Below are positions 31,513 through 52,646 of a stretch of DNA of 64,000 bases, in pieces. The DNA comes from a virus. Each line of letters begins with the position of its first letter. The first letter of the stretch is position 1. The notes beneath the pieces were generated by a model that did no database searches, had not been told where the DNA came from, and saw nothing but the letters and a program-made list of their open reading frames with translations. The DNA lies in IMG/VR virus record IMGVR_UViG_3300025687_000029, positions 1-64,000 of that record. One strand, written 5' to 3'. A program made the translations under genes and the position numbers.

Positions 31513-32870
31513 ATGAAAATAGAAATAATAAACAAACCAATGTTATGTTGGGATAATGATGAATCAGAAGCTAGAGAATACCATGTACTAGCTAAAGTTA
31601 CTGAATGTAATAGTAATTATCCATTCAAAGTTGTAGTTAACGAAAATACTTACAAAAGAACAAAAATCAAAGCCAGGCCTGGTCAGGCAGGGGGATTTAA
31701 AAACGCTAAACCTCTACCAGAAGTAACTGAATTAACAGTAGCTGAAATATCTAAATTATTAGGAAAAACAGTTAAAATCATTAAATAATTGAGAAGATTA
31801 AACTACTCCCTTTATTAACTATTATGAATTTAAACCATAACAACTATGAACATATATCTACTAAAACAAGACCTTATAACAGGAAAAGATACCTATAACT
31901 CAGCAATAGTTATAGCAGATACAATAGAAGAAGCTAAAAGTATTCATCCTGCTAATTATACAGATAAAAACTATTGGTGTGAATATACCTGGCCTTCTAG
32001 AGATCAATTAGATCATATCAAAGTAATTCAATTGGGAATTGCTTATGCTCACCTAAAGAAAGGTGTAGTATTATCATCATTAAATATAGATTAAACTTAA
32101 AAAGAACTACTATGAAAGTCCTATTTACAGATACATGTAATATGTTTGAATCAGCTAACCCTGTTGCAAACTTAGTCGAAGTATTTAATACTTCTGAAAC
32201 TATAATGAAGAAATTAGAATTATCTCAGGTTGGAGTCAGTCGAAGAGGTGGATCTTGGCGTGAAATAATGGATGATGGAAATATTAAATTTAATCACCTA
32301 TCTAAAGGTAAAAAAAGTGATTATGATTCTAGTGACTATGATCTAGAGTATAAATTAATTAGTGGAAATTATTAATTCTAAACTTAAGAATTATGACAAT
32401 CTCATTAATACTTATAATTATATTATTAAGTTGTATAGCCACATTAGCATTTGTTAAAATAAACAGATTTATTGTATTATTGATGTGTACATCAGTATTA
32501 GTAAATATTCTAACATTGATGGATTATACAACAAAAGAAACCTACCAAAAAGCTCTAACTAATAACCCTTATGAAATGGTTATATTATATGATATTGAAA
32601 AACAACCAGTAGATACAATCTATAAACTAAAGAAAGATGAATAAACTACCAAAATAGTTTGAAAATAGATGGTTTTAACTTTAAAAAACTAAAATTATGT
32701 ATACAGAAGAACAAGCAAAAGAATTAGCTGAAAACTTAGACATTCTTTCTAATGGAAGTGTTCAATATATAGTAGAATTTTTATTATCTAATAAAGATAG
32801 AACTATAGAAGAAATGATAGAGCATACTAACTATGCAGTTGATATGCTGATAAACTGTATTGAAGAATAA
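31513..32870 (+). other. Small early hypothetical genes (31513-31788, 31846-32094, 32112-32375, 32393-32644, 32697-32870)
   Basis: Co-oriented short ORFs with AT-rich leaders. Confidence 0.6.
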
Positions 32871-33647
32871 AGTGCCATATTGCACATACTCATCCTAAAT
32901 GGTTGCCATGCTATAATTATTAGGTATGTGCTGTCAACACTTTAATACAATCTTTTGGTGGTTGGTTTACGTGGAGAATATGGATTGGGGAAAGTATTGG
33001 TGAAAGGCCAATAATTAGATTGTATTTTAAACAATGATAATGTTAGCAAATCGTTGTACCTAAAAAGGTTTTATAGCTAACGGCAAACTCTAAATTAACA
33101 CCAAGAGTTATTTTGGTCATAAGTAGATTCATTTCATCTACATTGCGTCCCACTCTGAAAGGAGATTAAGCTGAATTGACAGTCTCGCAGTAATTTATTA
33201 GAATTTTATAATCAAGATTTAGGAGGTGTTATAGGGGATATAGTAATTAAGTGGAAAATCAGGGTCTTCATCGTCGCTGTTGTCTGTTCGAGCCAGGCTA
33301 TCCCCACTAATTAACAATATTCGATAGGGGTATGGAACATCACTATACTAATTCTAGTTAATGCGAATTATATAAAATGGAAACCTTTATATACTAGATT
33401 TAAAAAGGTGAAAACTTGGTAATAAATTAATCTCCTTTTACCAAGGATCATTATAGATATAGACTTTGGAGCCATATTAACTTATTTCTATAGATAAATC
33501 TAGTGAGTAAGTTTCTAAGTTATTATGGATGATAGAACGATAACTGAAGCTAGTTAAACTAAGAGTAAAATAAACTCCAAGTAGTTAGTCTACAATTGTC
33601 TCAATAAGATGGTTTAGGGTTTAATCCAAATTGAGAACTCTTAGTTT
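32869..33647 (+). ncRNA. ORF-free cluster of structured RNAs
   Basis: Successive closed multi-helix domains plus a tRNA-like element. Confidence 0.5.
33234..33306 (+). tRNA. tRNA-like RNA with an aberrant D/anticodon region
   Basis: GGGGATA/TATCCCC-A acceptor and GTCTG-TTCGAGC-CAGGC T arm; no canonical anticodon stem. Confidence 0.55.
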
Positions 33648-33700
33648 ATTTTTAATAAAAAACTAATTAACAATTAAATATTCACAAAAAATTTAAAGTT

Positions 33701-36700
33701 ATGAATGTATTTTATTCAATGATATTACTAACACCTAAGCAATTTATTGATAAGTTTAAAATTTATGATACAATTGTTTTAGGTGCATTAAATGAAACTA
33801 ATGTAAAAGGGCTAAGTAATGATTTTTACGTAGATAAAGTCTTACCTAAAGTTAGAGAATCAATACCTAATTTAAGTATTGCTGCGAAGCCAATTACTAA
33901 AGACAGAACCCTATGGCTTATCTCTACTAAAAATTTAGATAAAGAGAATATAAAACAATTAAATATAGTATTAACTAAAATTTAAAGGAGTTATGAAACT
34001 TAAATATTACAGAGGAAATATTCTTCCTCCAGAAGATGACAATCTTCCTAAATATTGGGCAGTTGTTAATGACAATTCTGAATTATATATTAATGTTGTG
34101 GTTGGTTATGTGAATAAATATTATGGGGGAGGACATTCTGCATTAAAACCAGAAAATTATTGCAAATTTCATGGAAGATTAGATGATTATGGATGCACTA
34201 ATGGAAGTCATATGAATTATATGAAATCTGAGTTAAAAATTTTATCCATAGAAGAATTCATAAAACTTACCCAACCACAAGTTGATTTTGAGATGTTGAA
34301 AGGAACGTTACAACATTTAAGACATGATCTACAATATATGATGGTAGAAGATAAATGTATTGATAATGTTGAACTATTCTTCCACCTATTATCAACTAAA
34401 CCAACATTTGCAGCTAAAGCACATGAGGAGTTAAAACGATTAAACAAATAACTATGAAAAGATATACAGTAATAAATAACAAAACAGGTTATAAAAGCAA
34501 TTATAGTTACTTTATGTGGAATTTAGCTTGGAGTTTGGTGTTTATATTTGGAGTATTAACAGGTATATTTATATCTTAAATAAATAACTATGGAACTAGA
34601 ATTAGTAGACTTTTCTTTAGCCCAGGAGCTAAAAGAAGTTGGGTTTAAGGAATTATGCTTTTATTATTATGAAGATGAAAAACTAAAAGAACCTTATTTA
34701 GAAAATGGAAGCTCAACAGATACAGACTTTAGAGTTGATTTGGAAGACTTGCGAGACAATTACAATTATTTGTCTTATAGATGTAACGCTCCGTATCTCG
34801 AAGAAGCTAAAATGTGGTTTAGGGAAGTACATGAGATTGATATATGTATTAATCCACACTATAAAACTAACAACGACATAGCAGGATTTATGGTAGATGT
34901 TTACATTAGAAAAGTAAAATACAACTCACATAAATACGGTGATGCTAAAGATACCTACAACCAAGCTCTATCATCAGGATTAAAGGAGGCGTGTAAACTA
35001 ATTAAGAACCAATTAAGATGAAAGCAAATAAAACATATCAGGAAAAAGTTGATGATTATGTTAAACAACAAGTAGAATTAGCTAAAGAAAATGACGTTAC
35101 TGGTATAATTGTGATAGACCACTCACATATTATCTCAGATAAAGACAAAGAAGAGTTAATTAAACTAAGTGAATTAATTAAAACTGATTAAGATGAAAGC
35201 AAAAGTAATAATGTTGGATAGTAAAACGAGTACTATCCACAAACATCAAAAAGAATTAAAAATTACAAAGTTTGAATTAGAAGAAACTGATTTTTTTATA
35301 CCCCAATATTTATATCTAACCAACCCAAATGCTAAAATTGAAGTTGGAGATTATTTTATTAAAGATAAAATGGTTTGTCAATGTAATGAAACTACTCAGA
35401 ATGAGTTAGGCTGTATTCCCGACAATGAAGTATATTGTAATACTCAAACTTATTTTGATAGAAGAAATTGTGTTAAAATAATAGCAACTACTAATTCTTC
35501 TTTAAGAATATTATTTGAAGGTCAAGAAGTATTAGAAGAACCTTATCCATTATCAGAACAATCAATCAAATTATTAGTAGATTACTACAATAGAAAAGGT
35601 AAAATGCCTGATGAGGTTGAGGTTAATTTTGAATACATAAATAAACCAATGAGTGACTTATTTTTAGACAAAACTATAAAACTAAACTCCAAAGGAGAAG
35701 TAGATATTATTATTCCTGAAGAAAAGATGTATAGTAGGGAAGAGGTTGAAACTTTGCTTACTAATATGGGTATTGATGCATTATTGCCTGAAGAAGAAGT
35801 TGATGAATGGATTAATGAAAACTTATAAAAACCTAAGAGTAGGTAACTTTTGAATTTTGGAAATAAGGAGAGTTGTGCGACTCTCCTTTTTAATTTTAAA
35901 ACTATGAAAAAACTATCACTAAAAGATCTAGAGCTGGAATTATTAGCTATTGCTTTACCGGGGACTAAAGTAAATGTGCTGTATTACAGTTCTATATTAG
36001 ATAAAAGAGAAATTATCTATTTAAACTAACAATTATGAGAAAAGTATTATTATTGACTATTATCATTCTAGGAATGATTAGTTGTGACAAAGAGGAACTA
36101 GTACCAATAAAAGAAACTACAACTAGAGACTCATTAATAAATGAGCTTGTAGATTTAAATACAATTTATACAGGAAGAAGTAAGTACAAATATACAATTA
36201 GATTAACAGAACAATGGTCAGATACTTCAGGATTACTTGTAGTAAAAAGATATGGACCTATAACTGTTAAGGAATATAGAGGATATTTTGATGAAGATTT
36301 AAGATTTATAGAATTATATAAAAATCAAGATACAATACTTCAAATAAATAAATTTACTGTTGATACATTATATTTAACATATTATCCAGATATAAATTTA
36401 ACAAAATTATGGAAGTAATTATAGGAATAGGAATATTAGTTTTTGCAATGATTTTAAGTTATCTGGTAGGAATTAGATTAACTAAAATTGAAGATAATGG
36501 AGACACAGAAGCTTAAAGAACAACAAGATAAGATTCATAGTATAATGTTACAATTTTCTAAGGAAGATAAGACTTCGGAGATTGATGTTATACTTATGAA
36601 TCTTATTACAATCTCAAAAGAAATTAACAATTTAATCAATAAATCAATAGTAGGAGATATTGAAGATCATTGAGAAAAGATAGAGTAGATTAAACTCATC

Positions 36701-37142
36701 GAAGTATAATGACAATTCTAATACTATTAACAATTAAATCAATATTAATAATTATTAAATTTTAGAAATTATGAAAACACAAGTAGCAGTAACAGTTAGA
36801 GATTTTGTAAATGGTGAAGTAGATAAAAATGGTAAAAGCCCTGTATTATTATATGTATTGGGTGGAAAATGTCCTAATAGAAATGTATTATCAGGTACAT
36901 TTGCTGAAAATGAAGGATTTGAAATAGGTAAATCTTATTTAGTTCAAGTAACAGAAAGAGAAGAAGATCCTACTTATGGTAGACAGTTTCAATTTACTAA
37001 AATAGGTGAATTGAATACTCTGGACCTTATTGGAATAGCGGATAAGCTTGGAGAACCTACAATGATAGATGTAACTGTTAAAGCTGAAATATCTGCTCCT
37101 GCTGATATTAAAGCAAAGACAACATCTGATGATGTACTTTAA
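33701..37142 (+). other. Early hypothetical gene block, including a probable lipoprotein at 36035-36418
   Basis: Co-oriented ORFs; 36035 has signal peptide MRKVLLLTIIILGMIS-C (lipobox). Confidence 0.6.
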
Positions 37143-37152
37143 ATAAAACAAT

Positions 37153-37179
37153 TAAGAGGAGTTTAATACTCCTCTTTTT
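37153..37179 (+). terminator. Intrinsic terminator
   Basis: AAGAGGAGT-ttaat-ACTCCTCTT-TTT. Confidence 0.8.
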
Positions 37180-37209
37180 CACAAATATTTACTAAATTTG
37201 TGACATTTT

Positions 37210-37295
37210 GGTCCAGAAGTTCATATGGTAGAATGTTGCCGGGTATACGTTAAATAATTATGGCAGAGGTATAGGTTCAAATCCTATCTGGACTA
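37210..37295 (+). tRNA. tRNA-like RNA (Asp-like scaffold) with an enlarged anticodon loop
   Basis: GGTCCAG/CTGGACT acceptor, GTTC/GAAT D stem, TTGCC/GGCAG stem with a 21-nt loop, ATAGG-TTCAAAT-CCTAT T arm. Confidence 0.65.
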
Positions 37296-37576
37296 CTAAA
37301 AATCACTCATTTTGATTTTCATAATAATGGTTTATATAAGTTTTGATTGATGAGTTGCAGTATAGGTAGGTTTGAGTGAGCCTACCTTTTAATAGAAATT
37401 TAGCGAACTGTGATGAAACATTTTAGCAAACTGATTGCTAACGATGGGTACATGAAGCGTATGAGGCACGAATATGATTTATGTACCGTATTAGGTGTCT
37501 GTATTTATTTTTTTAAGGGAGGGTTGTTTTATTGGAATGTTATTTGTTTGTTTGTTACAAATTAAAATATATAGCA

Positions 37577-37780
37577 ATGGGAAGAAAAATAGGTTCAATA
37601 GAAGCATTTGCGCTTCAAAACTTAAAACAAGGACAGTTTTTTTATACGCATAAACAAGACAAAGATATGACTGCAATTGCAGGATATTATAAAGTTAAAA
37701 TAACAACCGAGAGAATGGTTGCTATTGATACTACAAGGCACGAAAGAATAGAATTTATAACTAAAGTAACAATACTATGA
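37577..37780 (+). CDS. Cassette A gene 1, hypothetical
   Basis: MGRKIGSIEAF...; coupled to the next ORF (ATGA). Confidence 0.6.
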   Translation: MGRKIGSIEAFALQNLKQGQFFYTHKQDKDMTAIAGYYKVKITTERMVAIDTTRHERIEFITKVTIL

Positions 37781-37962
37781 AAGATTTTAATTTTAACATC
37801 AGACTATTTTGTATATGGAGATGTTTTATGGCTTGTCAGTTTGAATTTACGATACTAAGCATAACAATTGGTGAAACCGAAAGGAGTTTATTGTCTTATT
37901 TTAAAGACGATAGTAACAAAATACTCGACGTCTGTTTTTTTAGAGTGCGGTGGCAAAAATAA
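37777..37962 (+). CDS. Cassette A gene 2, hypothetical
   Basis: Stop lies 5 nt before GCACCTAAC. Confidence 0.55.
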   Translation: MKDFNFNIRLFCIWRCFMACQFEFTILSITIGETERSLLSYFKDDSNKILDVCFFRVRWQK

Positions 37963-38000
37963 ATATTGCACCTAACGTTTATAAATAATATTAGTAGCGT

Positions 38001-38312
38001 ATGAAAAGAGATAAATATACAATAACCGACTATCTTCGATATGGTAGAAACCTTGCAAATTTGCTGTGGTGGAAGCTATTAATTTTATTTGGTATTAGGC
38101 GTAGTGCTTCACCAATACCAGAAGGAGTGTACTGTTACGAACCTGATTATGTAGACACAAAAACATTTACATATTACGTAAAGCCATGTAAATACTACAA
38201 AAACTTAGGGTACGGATGGAATGGATGTAGTTATTTAGGTGTGATTACGGATGATTTTGTATTTAATGACCAATGCAAACTATGTAATGAGAATTATTGC
38301 AATATACACTAA
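38001..38312 (+). CDS. Cys-rich protein spanning a cassette junction
   Basis: Starts inside attC-like site 2; IPEGVYCY...PCKYY...DQCKLC. Confidence 0.65.
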   Translation: MKRDKYTITDYLRYGRNLANLLWWKLLILFGIRRSASPIPEGVYCYEPDYVDTKTFTYYVKPCKYYKNLGYGWNGCSYLGVITDDFVFNDQCKLCNENYCNIH

Positions 38313-38381
38313 CGGAATTACGCCTAACGGTTGGGGTATGGCATGTAATTTTACGAATTTGAAACACAAAATTATAATACG

Positions 38382-38609
38382 ATGGAAAAAATAAAAGAAA
38401 TAGTTGCAGATTTAATGGAATGTTATGATGGAACAGGAACACCAAACCAACATTACATAAAGAACAAAGTTACCGAGTTGCACAACATAGTTAAAAATAT
38501 TAATTATGACACTGTGTTAGCACCTGTTATTTGTGATTGGTGCGAAAAAGACATTACAAACAAAAGTAAAATTTGTGCAGATTGTGCAGATAGAATGAAT
38601 GAGCATTAA
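38382..38609 (+). CDS. Zn-finger protein spanning a cassette junction
   Basis: Starts inside attC-like site 3; CDWC...CADC follows the junction. Confidence 0.65.
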   Translation: MEKIKEIVADLMECYDGTGTPNQHYIKNKVTELHNIVKNINYDTVLAPVICDWCEKDITNKSKICADCADRMNEH

Positions 38610-38845
38610 TGGTTGCTAACTATTATATATTAATAATATCAATAAAATAAATACTTATACTATGATAGGAATAATAATTTTTTCAATTATATTTACAATA
38701 ATCGCTGTATTTATAATTTATGATCTAACTGTTTTTATTAAATATAAAGGCAAGAAAACACTACTAATAGGACCCTTCCTATTCTATATTTGTTTAGAGT
38801 TAATAATAACTTTAGTATTAATAGATTTAATGAAAAATTTATGAA

Positions 38846-40057
38846 ATGAAAAAGAAAGTAGAAGATTTAGATTATCCTGATGTAGTCCATTGTAGGAGTA
38901 AGGAAGAATCTGATTTAATAAATAAGTATAATAAGAATGGAGTTTATGATTGGACTGAAAGAGAACCTTATTTGTTATTAGGTAAAGCAGGACATAGTAA
39001 CAGTTCTTATGGTAGAAACTACAATAATTATGATTTCTCAGATATAATATTTCCAGAATCTAAAGAAAAAGCAGTTCACTGTACTACTCAGGAAGAATGG
39101 GATTTTGTATTAGATGTAATTAAAAATCCTTTGTGTTGTAGCAATGATTGGGATGTATATTCTGAAAACTCTATTTTATATATGAATGATGGGTCCAGAT
39201 CTAATACTGATTGGGTTAATCAACATAGTAATAAATTTAAATTGTTAACCTTCTCCCAATGGCTTAAAGAATCAGGTAATGAAGAGAAGTGGGTAGAAAT
39301 AACTAAATCTGAAGAACCTAAACCTAAATTTAAAGTTGGAGACTGGGTAGTACAAAGACAGTCTCAATACTATAATTTTATTGATAATATTACTCAAATA
39401 GTTAAAATAAAAAATGACCAGATTTGGGTAAGACAAAAAAGCGGTGTGGGAGGGGTTCTTGGTTTAAACCGATTTTGTGATGTTTTTAGAGAAGCAACCC
39501 AAAAAGAAATAGATTCTGTTACTAAATCCAAACTATCAGAATTAGATCAATGGATTGAGGATAATAAGGATTTTGAAGGGAGTTTTGAAGAATTTTTAAA
39601 ACAATTTAATGACAGTGATAGTTATAGTTTAATATCATATGAATTATGGTATAAAGTTCCTGGAGATTGGAGTAAAGAAAAAGCCCAATATATTTGGAAT
39701 AAATGGGGTAGGAGTAAAGGTATTGAGGAACAACTGAAGAGTGGTAAAAAATTAACTTTTGCTAAACCTGATGTTCTAGATATTCGGGAAACACTAGGAT
39801 TGCCAGAATTTGATGCTAAATTTCCTTCAAAGCAAGATAAATATCTAGAAGACAATCAAGAATCTATATGTAAATATTGTGAAGATCATATAATTGAAGG
39901 TTGTAGCATAACTTCTACTTTTCAATGTGAAGGTAGTTTTTGTGTACAAGCTACAGAATCTTGGTTAGAAGATAATCCTTTACCAAAACCTCAAGAAACA
40001 ACTATTGTAGATAAATCTGTTTATTTTCCTAAAACAGATGAAAATGAAATTTATTAA
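38846..40057 (+). CDS. Modular hypothetical protein
   Basis: Repeated VHC(R/T)..EE.D modules and a KFKVGDWV module. Confidence 0.6.
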   Translation: MKKKVEDLDYPDVVHCRSKEESDLINKYNKNGVYDWTEREPYLLLGKAGHSNSSYGRNYNNYDFSDIIFPESKEKAVHCTTQEEWDFVLDVIKNPLCCSNDWDVYSENSILYMNDGSRSNTDWVNQHSNKFKLLTFSQWLKESGNEEKWVEITKSEEPKPKFKVGDWVVQRQSQYYNFIDNITQIVKIKNDQIWVRQKSGVGGVLGLNRFCDVFREATQKEIDSVTKSKLSELDQWIEDNKDFEGSFEEFLKQFNDSDSYSLISYELWYKVPGDWSKEKAQYIWNKWGRSKGIEEQLKSGKKLTFAKPDVLDIRETLGLPEFDAKFPSKQDKYLEDNQESICKYCEDHIIEGCSITSTFQCEGSFCVQATESWLEDNPLPKPQETTIVDKSVYFPKTDENEIY

Positions 40058-40090
40058 TAACTAGTTATAAACAATTAAAATTAAATTAAA

Positions 40091-40519
40091 ATGACAAAAG
40101 TATCATTTGTACAAAGAGTACTAAGTTTTATTAAAACTGATGATGAGTCAGCAGTAAAAAGCACTCAAAAGCAAGCTTTAAAGATTTGGAGTAAAGAAGT
40201 TAGTCTTGCTGAAAGAGCTATTAGTAGGCTTAAACAAGATTTAGCTGAAGAAGTTGAGTCTAAAGAAGAGTATATTGCTGAAGCTAAAGAACAACTTGCT
40301 AATTCCTATCTTAATATTGATGTTGAGGCAGTTAAAACTGTAGACGATAGAAAGGATTATGTTGAAAATGTATATCAACAACAAATAGCAAATGCTAAAG
40401 CTAAAGTTGAAAGCTTGGAAAAAGAACTTTCTGATCTTAAAGATGAAGTAAATGCTAAAATTGAAAGAAAAGAAAAAGCAATTGCTATGTATAAAGAGAA
40501 TATTGAAGCAATTTCATAG
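40091..40519 (+). CDS. Coiled-coil protein
   Basis: Heptad-rich; followed by terminator GAGGGG-tgaaaat-CCCCTC-TTT. Confidence 0.6.
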   Translation: MTKVSFVQRVLSFIKTDDESAVKSTQKQALKIWSKEVSLAERAISRLKQDLAEEVESKEEYIAEAKEQLANSYLNIDVEAVKTVDDRKDYVENVYQQQIANAKAKVESLEKELSDLKDEVNAKIERKEKAIAMYKENIEAIS

Positions 40520-40565
40520 TTTTAAGTTTTAATATGAGGGGTGAAAATCCCCTCTTTTTTTAATT

Positions 40566-42485
40566 ATGAAGAAAATATATGTATATGATATTGAAACATA
40601 TCTTCATTGTTTTTTAGCAGTTTATTATGAAATATATTCCAAAGAAACCAGAATATTTGAGTTATCTAAAAATAAGAATGATTTAGAAGAACTAAAAAAC
40701 TTTCTGTATAGTAATAGTGATGAATATTTTGTTGGATATAATAATATTGAATTTGATTATCCTGTAATCCATGATATACTTTTAGGTCATTCTAATACAA
40801 CTGAAGAAATATTTAGTAAAGCCCAAATAGTAATAGATACTGAAGTTAAATGGCAAATAACTATTCCTGAATGGAAAACTGTAGGTAAGCAAATAGATCT
40901 CTTTAAAATTAATCATTTTGATAATGATGCTAAAAGAACTAGCTTGAAAGCTTTAGAAATTGCAATGAAAATGAATAATGTAGAAGATCTACCTTATGAT
41001 ATTGAACAACCTCTAAATGAATCTCAAATAAAAGAATTAACTGATTATTGTATTCATGATGTAAGAGCTACAGCTTTATTCTTTTTTAAGAATCAAAATG
41101 AAATTAAACTAAGATTAAATTTATCAAAAGAATATAATCTTAATCTTCTTAATCATAATGATCCTAAAATAGGTGAAGCTATTTTTATGAAATTTTTATG
41201 TGAAGAATTAGATAAACCAAGAAAATACTTTGTTGAGAATAATACTAAAAGACCTTATGTAGATCTTAAAGATTGTATTCTTGACTATATTACATTTGAA
41301 AACAAATCATTTAATGTATTACTTGATTGGTTAAAAGAGCAAAGAGTTTATCAAACCAAAGGGTTTTTTACAGAGATTCAACATAAAAAACTACATACTT
41401 TATTACCATATATGAATAAGAAGCAGAAGAATGGTAATATAGCTAAATTAAACATAATTTATGATGAAGTTCAGTATGATTTTGGTACTGGGGGATTACA
41501 TGCTTGTATTGATTCTGGGATTTATAAAGAAGATGATGACTTAACTATTATTGACTTAGATGTTGCCAGTTACTATCCAAATTTAGCAATTGTTAATGAC
41601 TTTTACCCAGAACATTTATCAAAGACTTTTTGTAAAATCTATAAAAATATTTATGACAAAAGAAAAGCTATTCCTAAATCTGATAGTAGAAATTATGGAT
41701 TAAAGATAGCACTTAATGGTTGTTTTGGTAAAGCTGGAGAAAGTAATTCACCATTCTTTGATATTAAATTTCTTTTATCAATTACTTTAAATGGTCAATT
41801 ATTACTTCTAAAGCTTGTTGATATGTTATATTCTCAATTAGATATTAAAATACTTCAAGCAAATACAGACGGTATTACATTTAAAGTTAAAAGATCTGAT
41901 GTAAATAAAGTTCAACAGATTAGAAAAGAATGGGAAGATTTGACCAATTTAGAATTGGAAGATGCTGTATACAAACAAATGATAATCAGGGATGTAAATA
42001 ATTATATTGCTGAATATCAAGATACTAAGATCAAACTCAAGGGTATTTTTGAAATAGAAAAAGCTTGGCATAAAAATCATTCTATGTTAGTTATTCCAAT
42101 TGCTTTGAAAGAATATTTCATTAATGATATTCCTATTGAAACTACAATTAAGAATCATAAAGATGTATATGATTTCTGTCTTAGAGAAAAGTTTAATAAA
42201 GGTTTCCAAGGAGAATTTCATTCAATAGATGGTCAAGATATTAAAATAGAGACTACTCAAAAGAATGTAAGATATTTAATATCAAATTCAGGTAAATATT
42301 TCTATAAAAGAAAACTTGAAACTGATACATTAAGTGTTGTAAATAAGAATACAAGATCTATTGAGATGAATAGAATACCAAAAGAATATAATATTGAAGA
42401 TTATGATATTAATTATCATTGGTATATCAAAGAAGCTTACAAAATTAAAAACACAATAGAAGATGGACAATTAAAATTATTTTAA
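40566..42485 (+). CDS. DNA polymerase family B
   Basis: Exonuclease motifs YDIET, GYNNIEFD, YCIHDV; polymerase motifs DLDVASYYPN, KIALNGCFGK, QANTDG. Confidence 0.9.
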   Translation: MKKIYVYDIETYLHCFLAVYYEIYSKETRIFELSKNKNDLEELKNFLYSNSDEYFVGYNNIEFDYPVIHDILLGHSNTTEEIFSKAQIVIDTEVKWQITIPEWKTVGKQIDLFKINHFDNDAKRTSLKALEIAMKMNNVEDLPYDIEQPLNESQIKELTDYCIHDVRATALFFFKNQNEIKLRLNLSKEYNLNLLNHNDPKIGEAIFMKFLCEELDKPRKYFVENNTKRPYVDLKDCILDYITFENKSFNVLLDWLKEQRVYQTKGFFTEIQHKKLHTLLPYMNKKQKNGNIAKLNIIYDEVQYDFGTGGLHACIDSGIYKEDDDLTIIDLDVASYYPNLAIVNDFYPEHLSKTFCKIYKNIYDKRKAIPKSDSRNYGLKIALNGCFGKAGESNSPFFDIKFLLSITLNGQLLLLKLVDMLYSQLDIKILQANTDGITFKVKRSDVNKVQQIRKEWEDLTNLELEDAVYKQMIIRDVNNYIAEYQDTKIKLKGIFEIEKAWHKNHSMLVIPIALKEYFINDIPIETTIKNHKDVYDFCLREKFNKGFQGEFHSIDGQDIKIETTQKNVRYLISNSGKYFYKRKLETDTLSVVNKNTRSIEMNRIPKEYNIEDYDINYHWYIKEAYKIKNTIEDGQLKLF

Positions 42486-50613: not shown

Positions 50614-51624
50614 ATGTCAAATAAATCAACATTTAAAGTAGGACAGATAAAAGGTATCTTAGAAGGTATCTATAATAATCCTACACTTAGAAGAACTGTA
50701 GTTCCTTTATTTATGAGTAATGCTGGAATGGGTAAAACCCACATCATAGAGGAATTTATGAGAGAAAAGGGTGTTTGGCGACCACCTTTTGTATTATCAC
50801 AGAGAATGCCATTTGAAGTATCTGGTATGGCTTTAGTAGATAGAGAATTAGATAAAATGAAATATTATGACTTTGATTTTCTATTAGATTTAAAAGATGG
50901 AGATATACTATTTATTGATGAGGTATATAATGCTAATCCCACTACACTTAATGCATTTTTAACTTTCTTAGAAAGTAGAATTATGATTTCTGGTAAAAAG
51001 CTTCCAGATATTATGATTGTAGGTGCAGGTAATCCTCAAGGCCAAGGTACTTTAACTCCTCAAATTAAACGTAGATTCTTACAATATGATTTAGAATTTG
51101 ATACTAATTCCTGGAAAGATTATATGTTTAAGAAATACGGATTAGTCAAATCTATTAGTAGTAAATTATGTACTTTAATACAAGGAGAAGATTATACAGG
51201 ATATAACTTTAATTCTCCTGCTGATATTGATAAAGCAGTAGAAATGGTTATCAATAATATTGATACTCCTTATACTATAATAGTAGAGCCTATTCTTAAT
51301 ACTATTATCAAAAATCCTTTAGGTAAATCAATTAAAATAACTGAAGATAGAACTTTAGAAGCTGAAGAACAGATTTCTTGGTTAGAATTAATTAGATTAA
51401 ATAAAGGTATTAGATTAGAAGAAGATAAGAAGGTAGAAAAATCCTTAAATGAGTATGAATATGTAATTATGGATAAAGATGATAATGTTTTAGGGGAAAT
51501 TAAGGACATTGAAACATTGAAAAATATGTATTATTTTACTGATGATCAGCTAAATAATCTGGAATTAGGTAAAAAAACCCCCTCCCGCCGGACCCCCTCC
51601 CTTATTTTTCAAAAAAATAATTAA
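50614..51624 (+). CDS. MoxR-like AAA+ ATPase
   Basis: SNAGMGKT, LFIDE, GAGNP, RRF. Confidence 0.8.
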   Translation: MSNKSTFKVGQIKGILEGIYNNPTLRRTVVPLFMSNAGMGKTHIIEEFMREKGVWRPPFVLSQRMPFEVSGMALVDRELDKMKYYDFDFLLDLKDGDILFIDEVYNANPTTLNAFLTFLESRIMISGKKLPDIMIVGAGNPQGQGTLTPQIKRRFLQYDLEFDTNSWKDYMFKKYGLVKSISSKLCTLIQGEDYTGYNFNSPADIDKAVEMVINNIDTPYTIIVEPILNTIIKNPLGKSIKITEDRTLEAEEQISWLELIRLNKGIRLEEDKKVEKSLNEYEYVIMDKDDNVLGEIKDIETLKNMYYFTDDQLNNLELGKKTPSRRTPSLIFQKNN

Positions 51625-51629
51625 ATAAT

Positions 51630-52646
51630 ATGGAATTATTAACAAGTAGTAAATTTAAACTACCTTATCTGTTTTTTATTACAGATAGAGAAGAGATAAA
51701 AGAATTACCCCTAGGTGTTCCTTTTATTTATGGAGATGAAAGTATTAAATCTGATATTATTAGAATTTTAGAATATGAAATTTTATATCAGAAAGCTATT
51801 TCAACAGGATTACCTTTTGATTTTAGACAAATTCTATTAGATGAGGGTTATACTGGACTTCAAGATTGTCATTATGAATTGCCTGCTTATATGGACTGTA
51901 TTTCAGATGATAATATAGATGAAGATATTTTAGGAGATGATTATGATTTAGGTAAATCTATTAAAGAAGATCCTACATTATTTAATACTTTTATTAGAGA
52001 TTCTGCTGTATATGTGAATATACAAAAGATAAAAGAACTTAATGTATTTCCTCTATGGTTTGATAAATTAGAAAATGCTATTGAAACGAATATACATAAT
52101 TTTGCTGTATTCAATGATTATATGTATAATAAGAAATTAGATGGTATGTATGGAGGAGTAGAATTATCTTCTCCTAATAGAAATCTAATTATTATTGATA
52201 TTTCCGGGAGTATTCCAAAAGCTGTATCTTCAACATGTTTAACCCTATCTAAATCTCTAGCTGAGACTTTCTATGCTGATTTATTGATTACTGGAACCAT
52301 ATCTACATTATATCCTTATGAAAATCTTCATGAATTGAATGTTCAAACTATTTATAATGAAAATGGTATGGATAATGATCAGATTTATTTTAAAAAGTTA
52401 GTTACAAGTGAAAAAAGAACATATAAAACTTGCATAGCTTTTGGAGATAATCACCACCCAGGATCTAATTATTGGAAAAATGCTGTAAGTATTAGTGATG
52501 AAGATGGTAAAAAGATGTGTTTATGGGAAATAGATAAGTTAATATCTTTTCATACTGAAGGTACAAAGCATATAGCAGGATATGCAAGATGGTTTGATCC
52601 TAAAGAAATTGAAAAGATAGATAATTGGTGTAAATATTTAAAATAA
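51630..52646 (+). CDS. vWA-domain protein (MoxR partner)
   Basis: MIDAS motif IIDISGS; adjacent to MoxR. Confidence 0.7.
   Translation: MELLTSSKFKLPYLFFITDREEIKELPLGVPFIYGDESIKSDIIRILEYEILYQKAISTGLPFDFRQILLDEGYTGLQDCHYELPAYMDCISDDNIDEDILGDDYDLGKSIKEDPTLFNTFIRDSAVYVNIQKIKELNVFPLWFDKLENAIETNIHNFAVFNDYMYNKKLDGMYGGVELSSPNRNLIIIDISGSIPKAVSSTCLTLSKSLAETFYADLLITGTISTLYPYENLHELNVQTIYNENGMDNDQIYFKKLVTSEKRTYKTCIAFGDNHHPGSNYWKNAVSISDEDGKKMCLWEIDKLISFHTEGTKHIAGYARWFDPKEIEKIDNWCKYLK

Follow-up and report, generated by a model that had tools for sequence, protein, structure and literature searches.

Integron-type cassettes are thought to carry whole promoterless genes, each followed by its attC site, and in phages they have been reported only recently. 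In canonical attC sites extrahelical bases are expected on the 5′ arm for the top strand, and the inverted-orientation cassettes of sedentary chromosomal integrons (e.g. those of toxin–antitoxin genes) are exceptions that need their own promoter. Another kind of modular exchange is known from shufflons and invertible tail-fibre segments (R64 Rci/sfx with PilV; Mu Gin, P1 Cin), in which an in-frame site borders a constant N-terminus and alternative C-termini; these systems invert segments within one genome, where the alternative tails lie adjacent. Phage clusters of attC sites lacking integron-integrases (CALINs), including that of Polaribacter phage P12002L, and their methyltransferase cargo were described by Qi et al. 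2023 (PMC9892861), who found IntI1-dependent recombination for five of six tested phage sites; P12002L_attC1, called by HattCI only, did not recombine, while the atypical P12002L attC2 did. Our literature search found no paper meaningfully linking crAss-like phages with attC, and no description of a gene start inside such a site as a recurrent layout. Here we analyse a 64,000-nt stretch of a virus record (IMG/VR IMGVR_UViG_3300025687_000029, positions 1 to 64,000; hereafter the window), in which a row of hairpin sites and small open reading frames (ORFs) occupies positions 37436–38620 of the plus strand. At a probability of roughly 55%, we read this region as an array of three integron-like cassettes without an integrase in the early region of a crAss-like phage, belonging to a family widespread in Bacteroidota phages.

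As in integrons and CALINs, RYYYAAC and GTTRRRY boxes with their AAC and GTT triplets flank imperfect palindromic arms whose structure is kept more than their sequence, the arrays run along one strand with a site for every small gene and no integrase nearby, the cassette end is complementary to its own box with the exchange point in ..AA↓C, and relatives carry methyltransferase cargo. Unlike attC, which stands 3′ of a promoterless gene, the phage sites occupy the gene's 5′ end, on the sense strand, and half of the strong ones hold the gene start and 20–47 codons. An attC length of ~57–141 nt and a 3′ location do not describe them either, as they reach ~200–240 nt and lie 5′ of or overlap the gene start. 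There is no IntI, and the sole neighbouring enzyme seen is a 288-aa Xer-like recombinase beside one related array (record G003). Inverted cassettes of chromosomal integrons come closer in that the gene is read against the canonical direction with its 5′ end beside attC; here the inverted layout seems to be general, with the gene overlapping the site. The three window sites (61, 131 and 201 nt) fall within 1.1 kb on one strand with no integrase, and may make up a CALIN insofar as they count as attC sites.

In the arrangement that we propose, a cassette would consist of a hairpin site that folds best on the gene-sense strand, a small gene, and a 3′ end of the form ..ATTAC-RYYYAA complementary to the cassette's own internal box. 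In long-loop sites the loop would hold the 5′ untranslated region (5′UTR), the start codon and the first 20–47 codons of the gene, so that the right arm and the GTT box are translated, GTT usually as Val. Both ORF1 and ORF2 of the array start inside such hairpins, and ORF1 would move as site plus whole gene, cut at AA↓C of the sense strand.

Much of the evidence for this reading comes from ORF1 (38001–38312, plus strand), whose complete 103-aa product combines an N-terminal helix with a domain of five invariant Cys, and from the long-loop hairpin whose loop holds its start codon (site 2, 37970–38106; inverted repeat I25). The 5′ box of site 2 is ACCTAAC (37970–37976) and its 3′ box ATTAGGC (38094–38100, with the extension GTAGTG); the left arm (37983–37998) lies in the ORF1 5′UTR and the right arm (38075–38090) covers codons 25–30, for an arm-duplex energy of -18.1 kcal/mol. 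Directly after the stop codon, the cassette ends in AATTACGCCTAAC (38316–38328), which is complementary to 38094–38106 and whose ..AAC doubles as the 5′ box of site 3. In ORF1-related loci the internal DNA GGT-GTT-AGG-CGT-AGT-G is conserved, as is a complementary ..ATTACGCCTAAC after the stop codon; the post-stop box pairs with the internal box at 11–13 of 13 positions in most loci, and in the distant loci L014 and L015 both sides change together. About 45 nt upstream of the ORF1 start there is a conserved left arm, preceded by another ..YAAC box. Aligning ORF1-type sites from 15 diverse loci gave a 17-bp helix between the 5′UTR and codons 24–30 that is 99.6% paired with four compensatory pairs, compared with only 38–60% pairing in a slid-partner control, and a Phe-to-Arg codon change in L014/L015 is matched by a change in the 5′UTR. 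AAC:GTT is paired in 14–15 of these 15 sites; the upstream RYYY positions are often unpaired with the internal box, as expected if RYYY derives from the neighbouring cassette. Because helix pairing and compensatory changes hold across the 15 loci, we take the hairpin around the ORF1 start to be under selection and site 2 to be its homologue.

A first-pass annotation of this DNA had proposed that each cassette supplies a headless C-terminal module plus the start codon and N-terminus for the next cassette, so that rearrangement at a crossover inside ORF1 and ORF2 would shuffle protein halves. Both ORFs exist as it gave them, ORF1 with 103 aa and ORF2 (38382–38609) with 75 aa, and the box sequences that it pointed to, GGT-ATT-AGG-CGT at 38091–38102 and GTG-TTA-GCA at 38514–38522, are present and read in different frames (frame 0 in ORF1, where ATT is a codon; frame 2 in ORF2, one base out of step). 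For ORF1, the shuffling of halves does not withstand comparison with its homologues. We found 19 database proteins of 94–160 aa that match ORF1 at 52–88% identity over 80–100% of length, and 66 ORF1 loci among contigs from viruses, genomes and metagenomes. At the junction, the codons FG(V/I)RRS sit in the middle of the best-conserved block of the alignment (L22 to Y46), and the invariant positions span the junction (L27, F30, R34, I39, P40, G42, and C45 onwards, with all five Cys invariant). Full-length homologues keep both halves together without a breakpoint, down to distant members at 38–55% identity, several of which (e.g. L056, L062) lack any box motif; among the 19 proteins and ~60 loci, none joins the C-terminal domain to another head or the head to another C-terminus. 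On this alignment evidence half-shuffling is refuted for ORF1, which appears to be inherited always as a whole gene, and the dominant unit of these arrays is a site plus a whole gene, not a tail plus the head of the next cassette. ORF1 belongs to a phage protein family. It has no Pfam, PHROG or NCBIfam match, a protein atlas gave only unnamed viral clusters, and its AlphaFold2 (AF2) model is of low confidence (predicted local distance difference test score, pLDDT, 53), too poor for a fold search.

The points of exchange lie outside the gene. The 20 distinct upstream flanks of the ORF1 cassette have nothing in common except ..YAAC before the conserved left arm, and on its right side, compared over 39 distinct downstream flanks, conservation ceases directly after ..CTAAC; the genes beside the cassette show no relation from locus to locus. 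In an all-against-all comparison, 122 left and 104 right homology ends fall at the C of the 5′ box, as opposed to 3 and 7 at the GTT box. Run X7 yielded a contig that is 93% identical to the window over 37521–37977 and then continues, after ..CCTAACG, with another left arm of the family type, a natural cassette difference, as far as the two sequences tell, at this very junction. From these ends the ORF1 exchange point is shown to be the outer 5′ ..AA↓C box, as far as sequence comparison can place it, so ORF1 does not cross the crossover at its internal box as the first-pass annotation had it. AA↓C on the sense strand corresponds to the canonical G↓TT on the opposite strand, and ORF1 would then be a mirror-image cassette with one whole gene.

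Recombinases are scarce near these arrays. A search of related viral records found none in nine of ten; in the remaining one, G003 (L083 1–1500; reverse strand of contig 50900–52400), the array runs straight into the gene of the 288-aa Xer-like tyrosine recombinase on the same strand. Its GTG start overlaps the last junction box, GTGCTAAC, and the protein scores below IntI cut-offs. If the top strand of the cassettes is antisense to the genes, this position of the recombinase is that of canonical integron geometry. A PF00589 (tyrosine recombinase) search of the 95.7-kb, 94%-complete phage record to which the window belongs gave no match, and therefore the intI gene and attI beside the array that define a complete integron are not found in this phage. 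The recombinase may instead be supplied in trans, by the host or by an Xer-like enzyme such as that beside the G003 array.

Two bacterial assemblies, L018 (Winogradskyella thalassocola NZ_FNCZ01000005.1) and L017 (a Saprospiraceae metagenome-assembled genome), carry ORF1 cassettes too, and one of these cassettes lies at a contig end. Many further contigs stop in the ORF1 cassette or a few bases from it (L003, L004, L009, L010, L016, L040, L057 and L063–L066); assemblies appear to break at these arrays, as expected where a region varies within populations.

Site 2 has many relatives. The consensus of the family is RYYYAAC, arm, loop, arm, GTTRRRY, and a duplex scan (box plus arm against arm plus box) over 336 kb of loci found 153 sites in the sense of ORF1 and 81 in antisense, with 41 in simulated sequence. 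Many of them score -25 to -38 kcal/mol, and they stand in arrays of up to seven, one per small gene, with site lengths of 52–237 nt. Between seven different sites the alignment is confined to the boxes and arms; a 'leader family' that seemed common to L019, L032 and L021 was dropped, as their DNA likewise aligns only there. The layout around the sites is recurrent: an ORF starts inside the site and reads out through its 3′ box in 27 of 55 distinct strong sites, an ORF starts within 80 nt past the site in another 20, and in 44 the site follows immediately on the stop of the upstream ORF. Sites longer than 110 nt are mostly of the start-inside type. Their ORFs encode many unrelated small proteins and one methyltransferase, and read the GTT box as a Val codon in 23 of 27 cases, a bias that owes partly to the TAG that one other frame would create. 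Several unrelated cassettes encode a helical head and a CxxC..CxxC tail split at the box. Phage P12002L has the same type of site between its methyltransferase genes, and the primer sequence that was published for P12002L_attC1 belongs to the family as a compact member. Taken together, these comparisons mark the hairpin sites as a family that we consider real, carried by Bacteroidota phages and, among them, by crAss-like phages.

In one pair of loci (L033 3313–3374 and L035 691–754) the same compact site follows ORF1 with its interior inverted and its outer boxes in the same orientation. The difference suggests an inversion between the two boxes of one site.

ORF2 shows a pattern different from that of ORF1. 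It begins in site 3 (38322–38522, plus strand; 5′ box GCCTAAC at 38322–38328, 3′ box GTTAGCA at 38516–38522), a weak or decayed long-loop site that encloses the ORF2 start and 47 codons. The arm duplex of site 3 reaches only -8.5 kcal/mol, with fold z-scores of +0.6/+0.9; its left arm resembles that of L019, its right arm that of L033 2597–2789, and its 3′ box with the following ~25 nt (38516–38540) the last cassette of G003. A sigma-70-like TTTACG-17-TATAAT stands at 38350–38378 in the site 3 loop, directly before the ORF2 start, in a region where such hits are below chance. ORF2 itself divides into a head (residues 1–46, 38382–38519), a V-L-A junction and a CxxC..CxxC tail (38523–38606). An AF2 model shows helices at residues 2–15 and 23–38 with pLDDT 75–87 and a tail below 56, and residues 45–72 have a weak Pfam zinc-ribbon match (E = 0.0024, below cut-off).

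An exhaustive profile-free search with ORF2 residues 1–47 returned about a dozen proteins of 72–101 aa with the same head. In pairs such as window ORF2 and P0021, P0029 and P0030, or P0028 and P0033, the heads are 83–98% identical and the tails show no BLASTP similarity. The breaks fall at ..NYDTVLA, ..INYIPCCE and ..NDIHDVS, peptides that would spell the right arm and GTTRRRY box if their genes use codons as the window and L033 do. The CxxC..CxxC tail occurs in six of 13 aligned members (A3; including ORF2 and the L033 2656–2940 product), and the other tails are unrelated; by eye, the P0021 tail is not a frameshifted reading of the window tail, whose other frames are unlike it. A cassette of another type behaves alike at the DNA level: L021 841–946 and L052 737–840 share 82% identity over the left arm, the start codon and a further 22 codons, and their similarity ends immediately ahead of the GTT box. 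No confirmed locus came out of scanning viral and metagenome contigs with the ORF2 family, and in tblastn of the family proteins against the collected loci the window was the only match.

The ORF2 family thus appears to join one head to many unrelated tails at the box codons, which agrees with head/tail recombination, a plausible but unproven course. Under the cassette reading, recombination at the 3′ box would be a second, less frequent outcome (ORF2 family; L021 vs L052) that leaves one head with varied tails. The chimeras could reflect either a site-specific crossover at the internal box or similar sites standing in front of different cargo; the shared heads do not prove the former, because sites of one family resemble each other anyway. 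We hold it as a tentative idea, and lean against it, that the recombination site here also serves as coding sequence: the head embedded in the site, which has a start codon of its own and folds independently, would be linked to interchangeable tails (zinc ribbons, for instance) when crossover occurs at the 3′ box. The first-pass annotation had expected one module on different partners at the junction. Such partners are seen in the ORF2 family, in the reverse sense (one N-terminus with many C-termini), and are absent for ORF1. Its statement that a Cys-rich module lies wholly 3′ of the junction holds for the CxxC and Cys-rich parts; one conserved Cys, C14, is found in the ORF2 head. That the ORFs start inside attC-like hairpins is borne out by the recurrence of the layout and the conservation of site 2; site 3 is weak, and the statistics of the window alone are at chance. 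Overall the observation was partly confirmed and its interpretation partly supported.

Several results weigh against the reading as integron-like cassettes. By the window alone the sites are indistinguishable from chance, with site 3 very weak. CCTAAC occurs 16 times where 20 are expected, each strand has 35 TTAG-cored 7-nt inverted pairs where simulations give 39 ± 7, clusters of three such pairs arise in nearly every simulation, and single-strand DNA folds of the three sites have z-scores of -0.65 to +0.89. The arm-duplex background has 1% of its values beyond -17.4 and 0.1% beyond -19.8 kcal/mol. A 7-mer complement of the post-stop sequence near the gene start is found for 41–68% of all window ORFs, so this test does not discriminate and was dropped as evidence. 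All loci were collected via ORF1, a choice that biases the excess of breakpoints at the 5′ box to the ORF1 cassette, and the few alignments excluding ORF1 show breakpoints of both kinds. Contigs of four runs over the array have the same arrangement and no joints; contigs cannot show rare variants, so their lack of joints counts neither for nor against rearrangement. In the independent sample X2, an identical contig covers 37821–38757. The only tested member of the site family, P12002L_attC1, failed with IntI1 (PMC9892861). The extra bases of the ORF1 hairpin, a GG bulge, are on the 5′ arm, which conflicts with the mirror-image assignment, though the bulge assignment is ambiguous; the other pointers to strand choice, the 153 versus 81 sites with their better folding of the sense strand and the inverted interiors of L033 and L035, do not single out one strand. 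Better folding of the sense strand and conserved G-T/G-U pairs would also fit an RNA structure.

That last point leads to the alternative that the hairpins regulate early genes from their 5′ ends, either as RNA structures or as promoter/terminator cassettes, and that short homologies between the repeated copies let general recombination shuffle the genes. Besides the sense-strand folding and conserved G-U pairs, it would account for sites placed exactly between a stop codon and the next start codon, for start codons in the loop, as in translational control elements, and for the lack of a recombinase in most of these phages. There is also a documented precedent in the stem-loop cassettes of T4-type phages (PeSL), where conserved stem-loops similarly flank small accessory ORFs in hyperplastic early regions, mark the borders of insertions, deletions and replacements, and mediate modular shuffling (PMC2839356, PMC4122927). 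PeSL elements carry a promoter and a terminator and act through homologous recombination, whereas the sites described here have integron-core boxes, flanks that share ~4 nt, and hairpins that overlap coding sequence. We found no terminator-like site on the hairpins, and seven promoter-like hits where 14 were expected, in a scan of sigma-70-type patterns only, which are unfit for Bacteroidota or phage polymerases. The ..YAAC shared by the 20 unrelated left flanks of ORF1 is too little for general recombination, the box consensus equals the integron core and inverse core, the G003 recombinase starts on a junction box, and one P12002L site, though atypical of the family, was recombined by IntI1 (PMC9892861). 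We therefore regard a purely regulatory role as improbable. That the window holds only ordinary small phage ORFs with chance inverted motifs and no special element is in line with all of the window-only statistics, and still very improbable: dozens of loci retain the ORF1 hairpin and its boxes, in the same positions and with compensatory changes, which contradicts chance for site 2 and leaves it possible for site 3 only.

A further alternative is the model of the first-pass annotation taken as designed function, with a crossover at the internal G↓TT, the head belonging to the upstream unit and the tail to the next, and combinatorial proteins or frame-switched tails as the product. The 12 ORF2-family proteins in three subgroups with breaks at V-S, C-C-E and V-L-A speak for it, as do the 106 nt of L021 and L052 whose 82% identity ends just before the GTT box, the autonomous two-helix fold predicted by AF2 for the ORF2 head, and the several unrelated cassettes split at the box between a helical head and a CxxC..CxxC tail. 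ORF1 contradicts it outright, its orientation leaves an orphan half-site at the array end (38614–38620), and the evidence from ORF2 relatives is at protein level only. The same head with different cargo needs no crossover at the internal box, since sites of the family are alike, as in chromosomal integrons. The likeness to shufflons and Gin-type systems, an in-frame recombination site between a constant N-terminal and alternative C-terminal parts, also has its bounds, as the window has no alternative tail nearby and the variation is between genomes; tails inverted in silico between the inverted boxes stop after 16–19 residues of junk, so shufflon-like inversion was rejected. On these grounds we think the designed head-tail model unlikely.

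The remaining features of the array fit around those of ORF1 and ORF2. Cassette extents are 37442–37975, 37976–38327 and 38328–38619. Site 1, at the 5′ end of cassette A, is a compact intergenic hairpin (37436–37496, plus strand) with 5′ box TGCTAAC (37436–37442), 3′ box ATTAGGT (37490–37496) and arms GGGTACATGA../..TTATGTACC. Its arm-duplex energy of -18.4 kcal/mol is in roughly the top 0.7% of simulated background, and its arm consensus agrees with sites in related loci and in phage P12002L. The cargo of cassette A comprises two small overlapping ORFs on the same strand (37577–37780 and 37777–37962 in the ORF list), which have no family match in Pfam or PHROG. Its 3′ box, GCACCTAAC (37968–37976, plus strand), is complementary to TTAGGTG at 37491–37497. 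At the other end, 4 nt past the ORF2 stop, a terminal box TGCTAAC (38614–38620, plus strand) is complementary to GTTAGCA at 38516–38522; no hairpin arm follows it in the sequence, and a 7-nt match of this kind is not significant taken alone. The three-cassette block has the 8-nt TTGCTAAC at each of its outer junctions (37435–37442 and 38613–38620) and looks as if it had been inserted at one TTGCTAAC-type site.

The 95.7-kb record encodes a portal, a terminase and a family-B DNA polymerase, and its closest major capsid proteins are those of Cellulophaga phage phi14:2 and gut crAss-like phages, in keeping with a crAss-like phage, here one from freshwater. The ORF1/ORF2 array is located in a plus-strand block of small ORFs on the early/replication side. 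A blastn search of 36000–41000 against phage genomes gave no match. ARAGORN gives no tRNA or tmRNA in 32500–39000, a span that includes two segments that had been read as tRNA-like (37210–37295 and 33234–33306). The 403-aa ORF downstream of the array (38846–40057) contains a 33-nt direct repeat (38884–38916 and 39073–39105, 76% identity, 189 nt apart) that may be an internal duplication of a small domain.

The window cassettes were probably acquired and are now fixed or fossil. Sites 1 and 2 have ATT at the position that is GTT in 14 of 15 relatives, and the 5′ boxes of the window are intact; we judge the copies fossil because two of the three 3′ boxes are ATT, site 3 barely pairs and no recombinase is encoded. 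For the family at large, a numerous set of sites in front of genes, often enclosing the gene start, points to a mirror-image, phage-adapted cassette system mostly without a linked integrase. For annotation, caution is advisable, as conserved 'N-terminal domains' in such genes may be shaped by constraints on DNA structure. If in-frame recombination at the box swaps tails, small phage proteins would have a new route to diversity, and there would be a handle on how cassettes arise. Were the tentative idea of a site-embedded head true, Bacteroidota phages would build combinatorial families of small early proteins, possibly with anti-defence roles, in a shufflon-like manner that works by cassette exchange between genomes.

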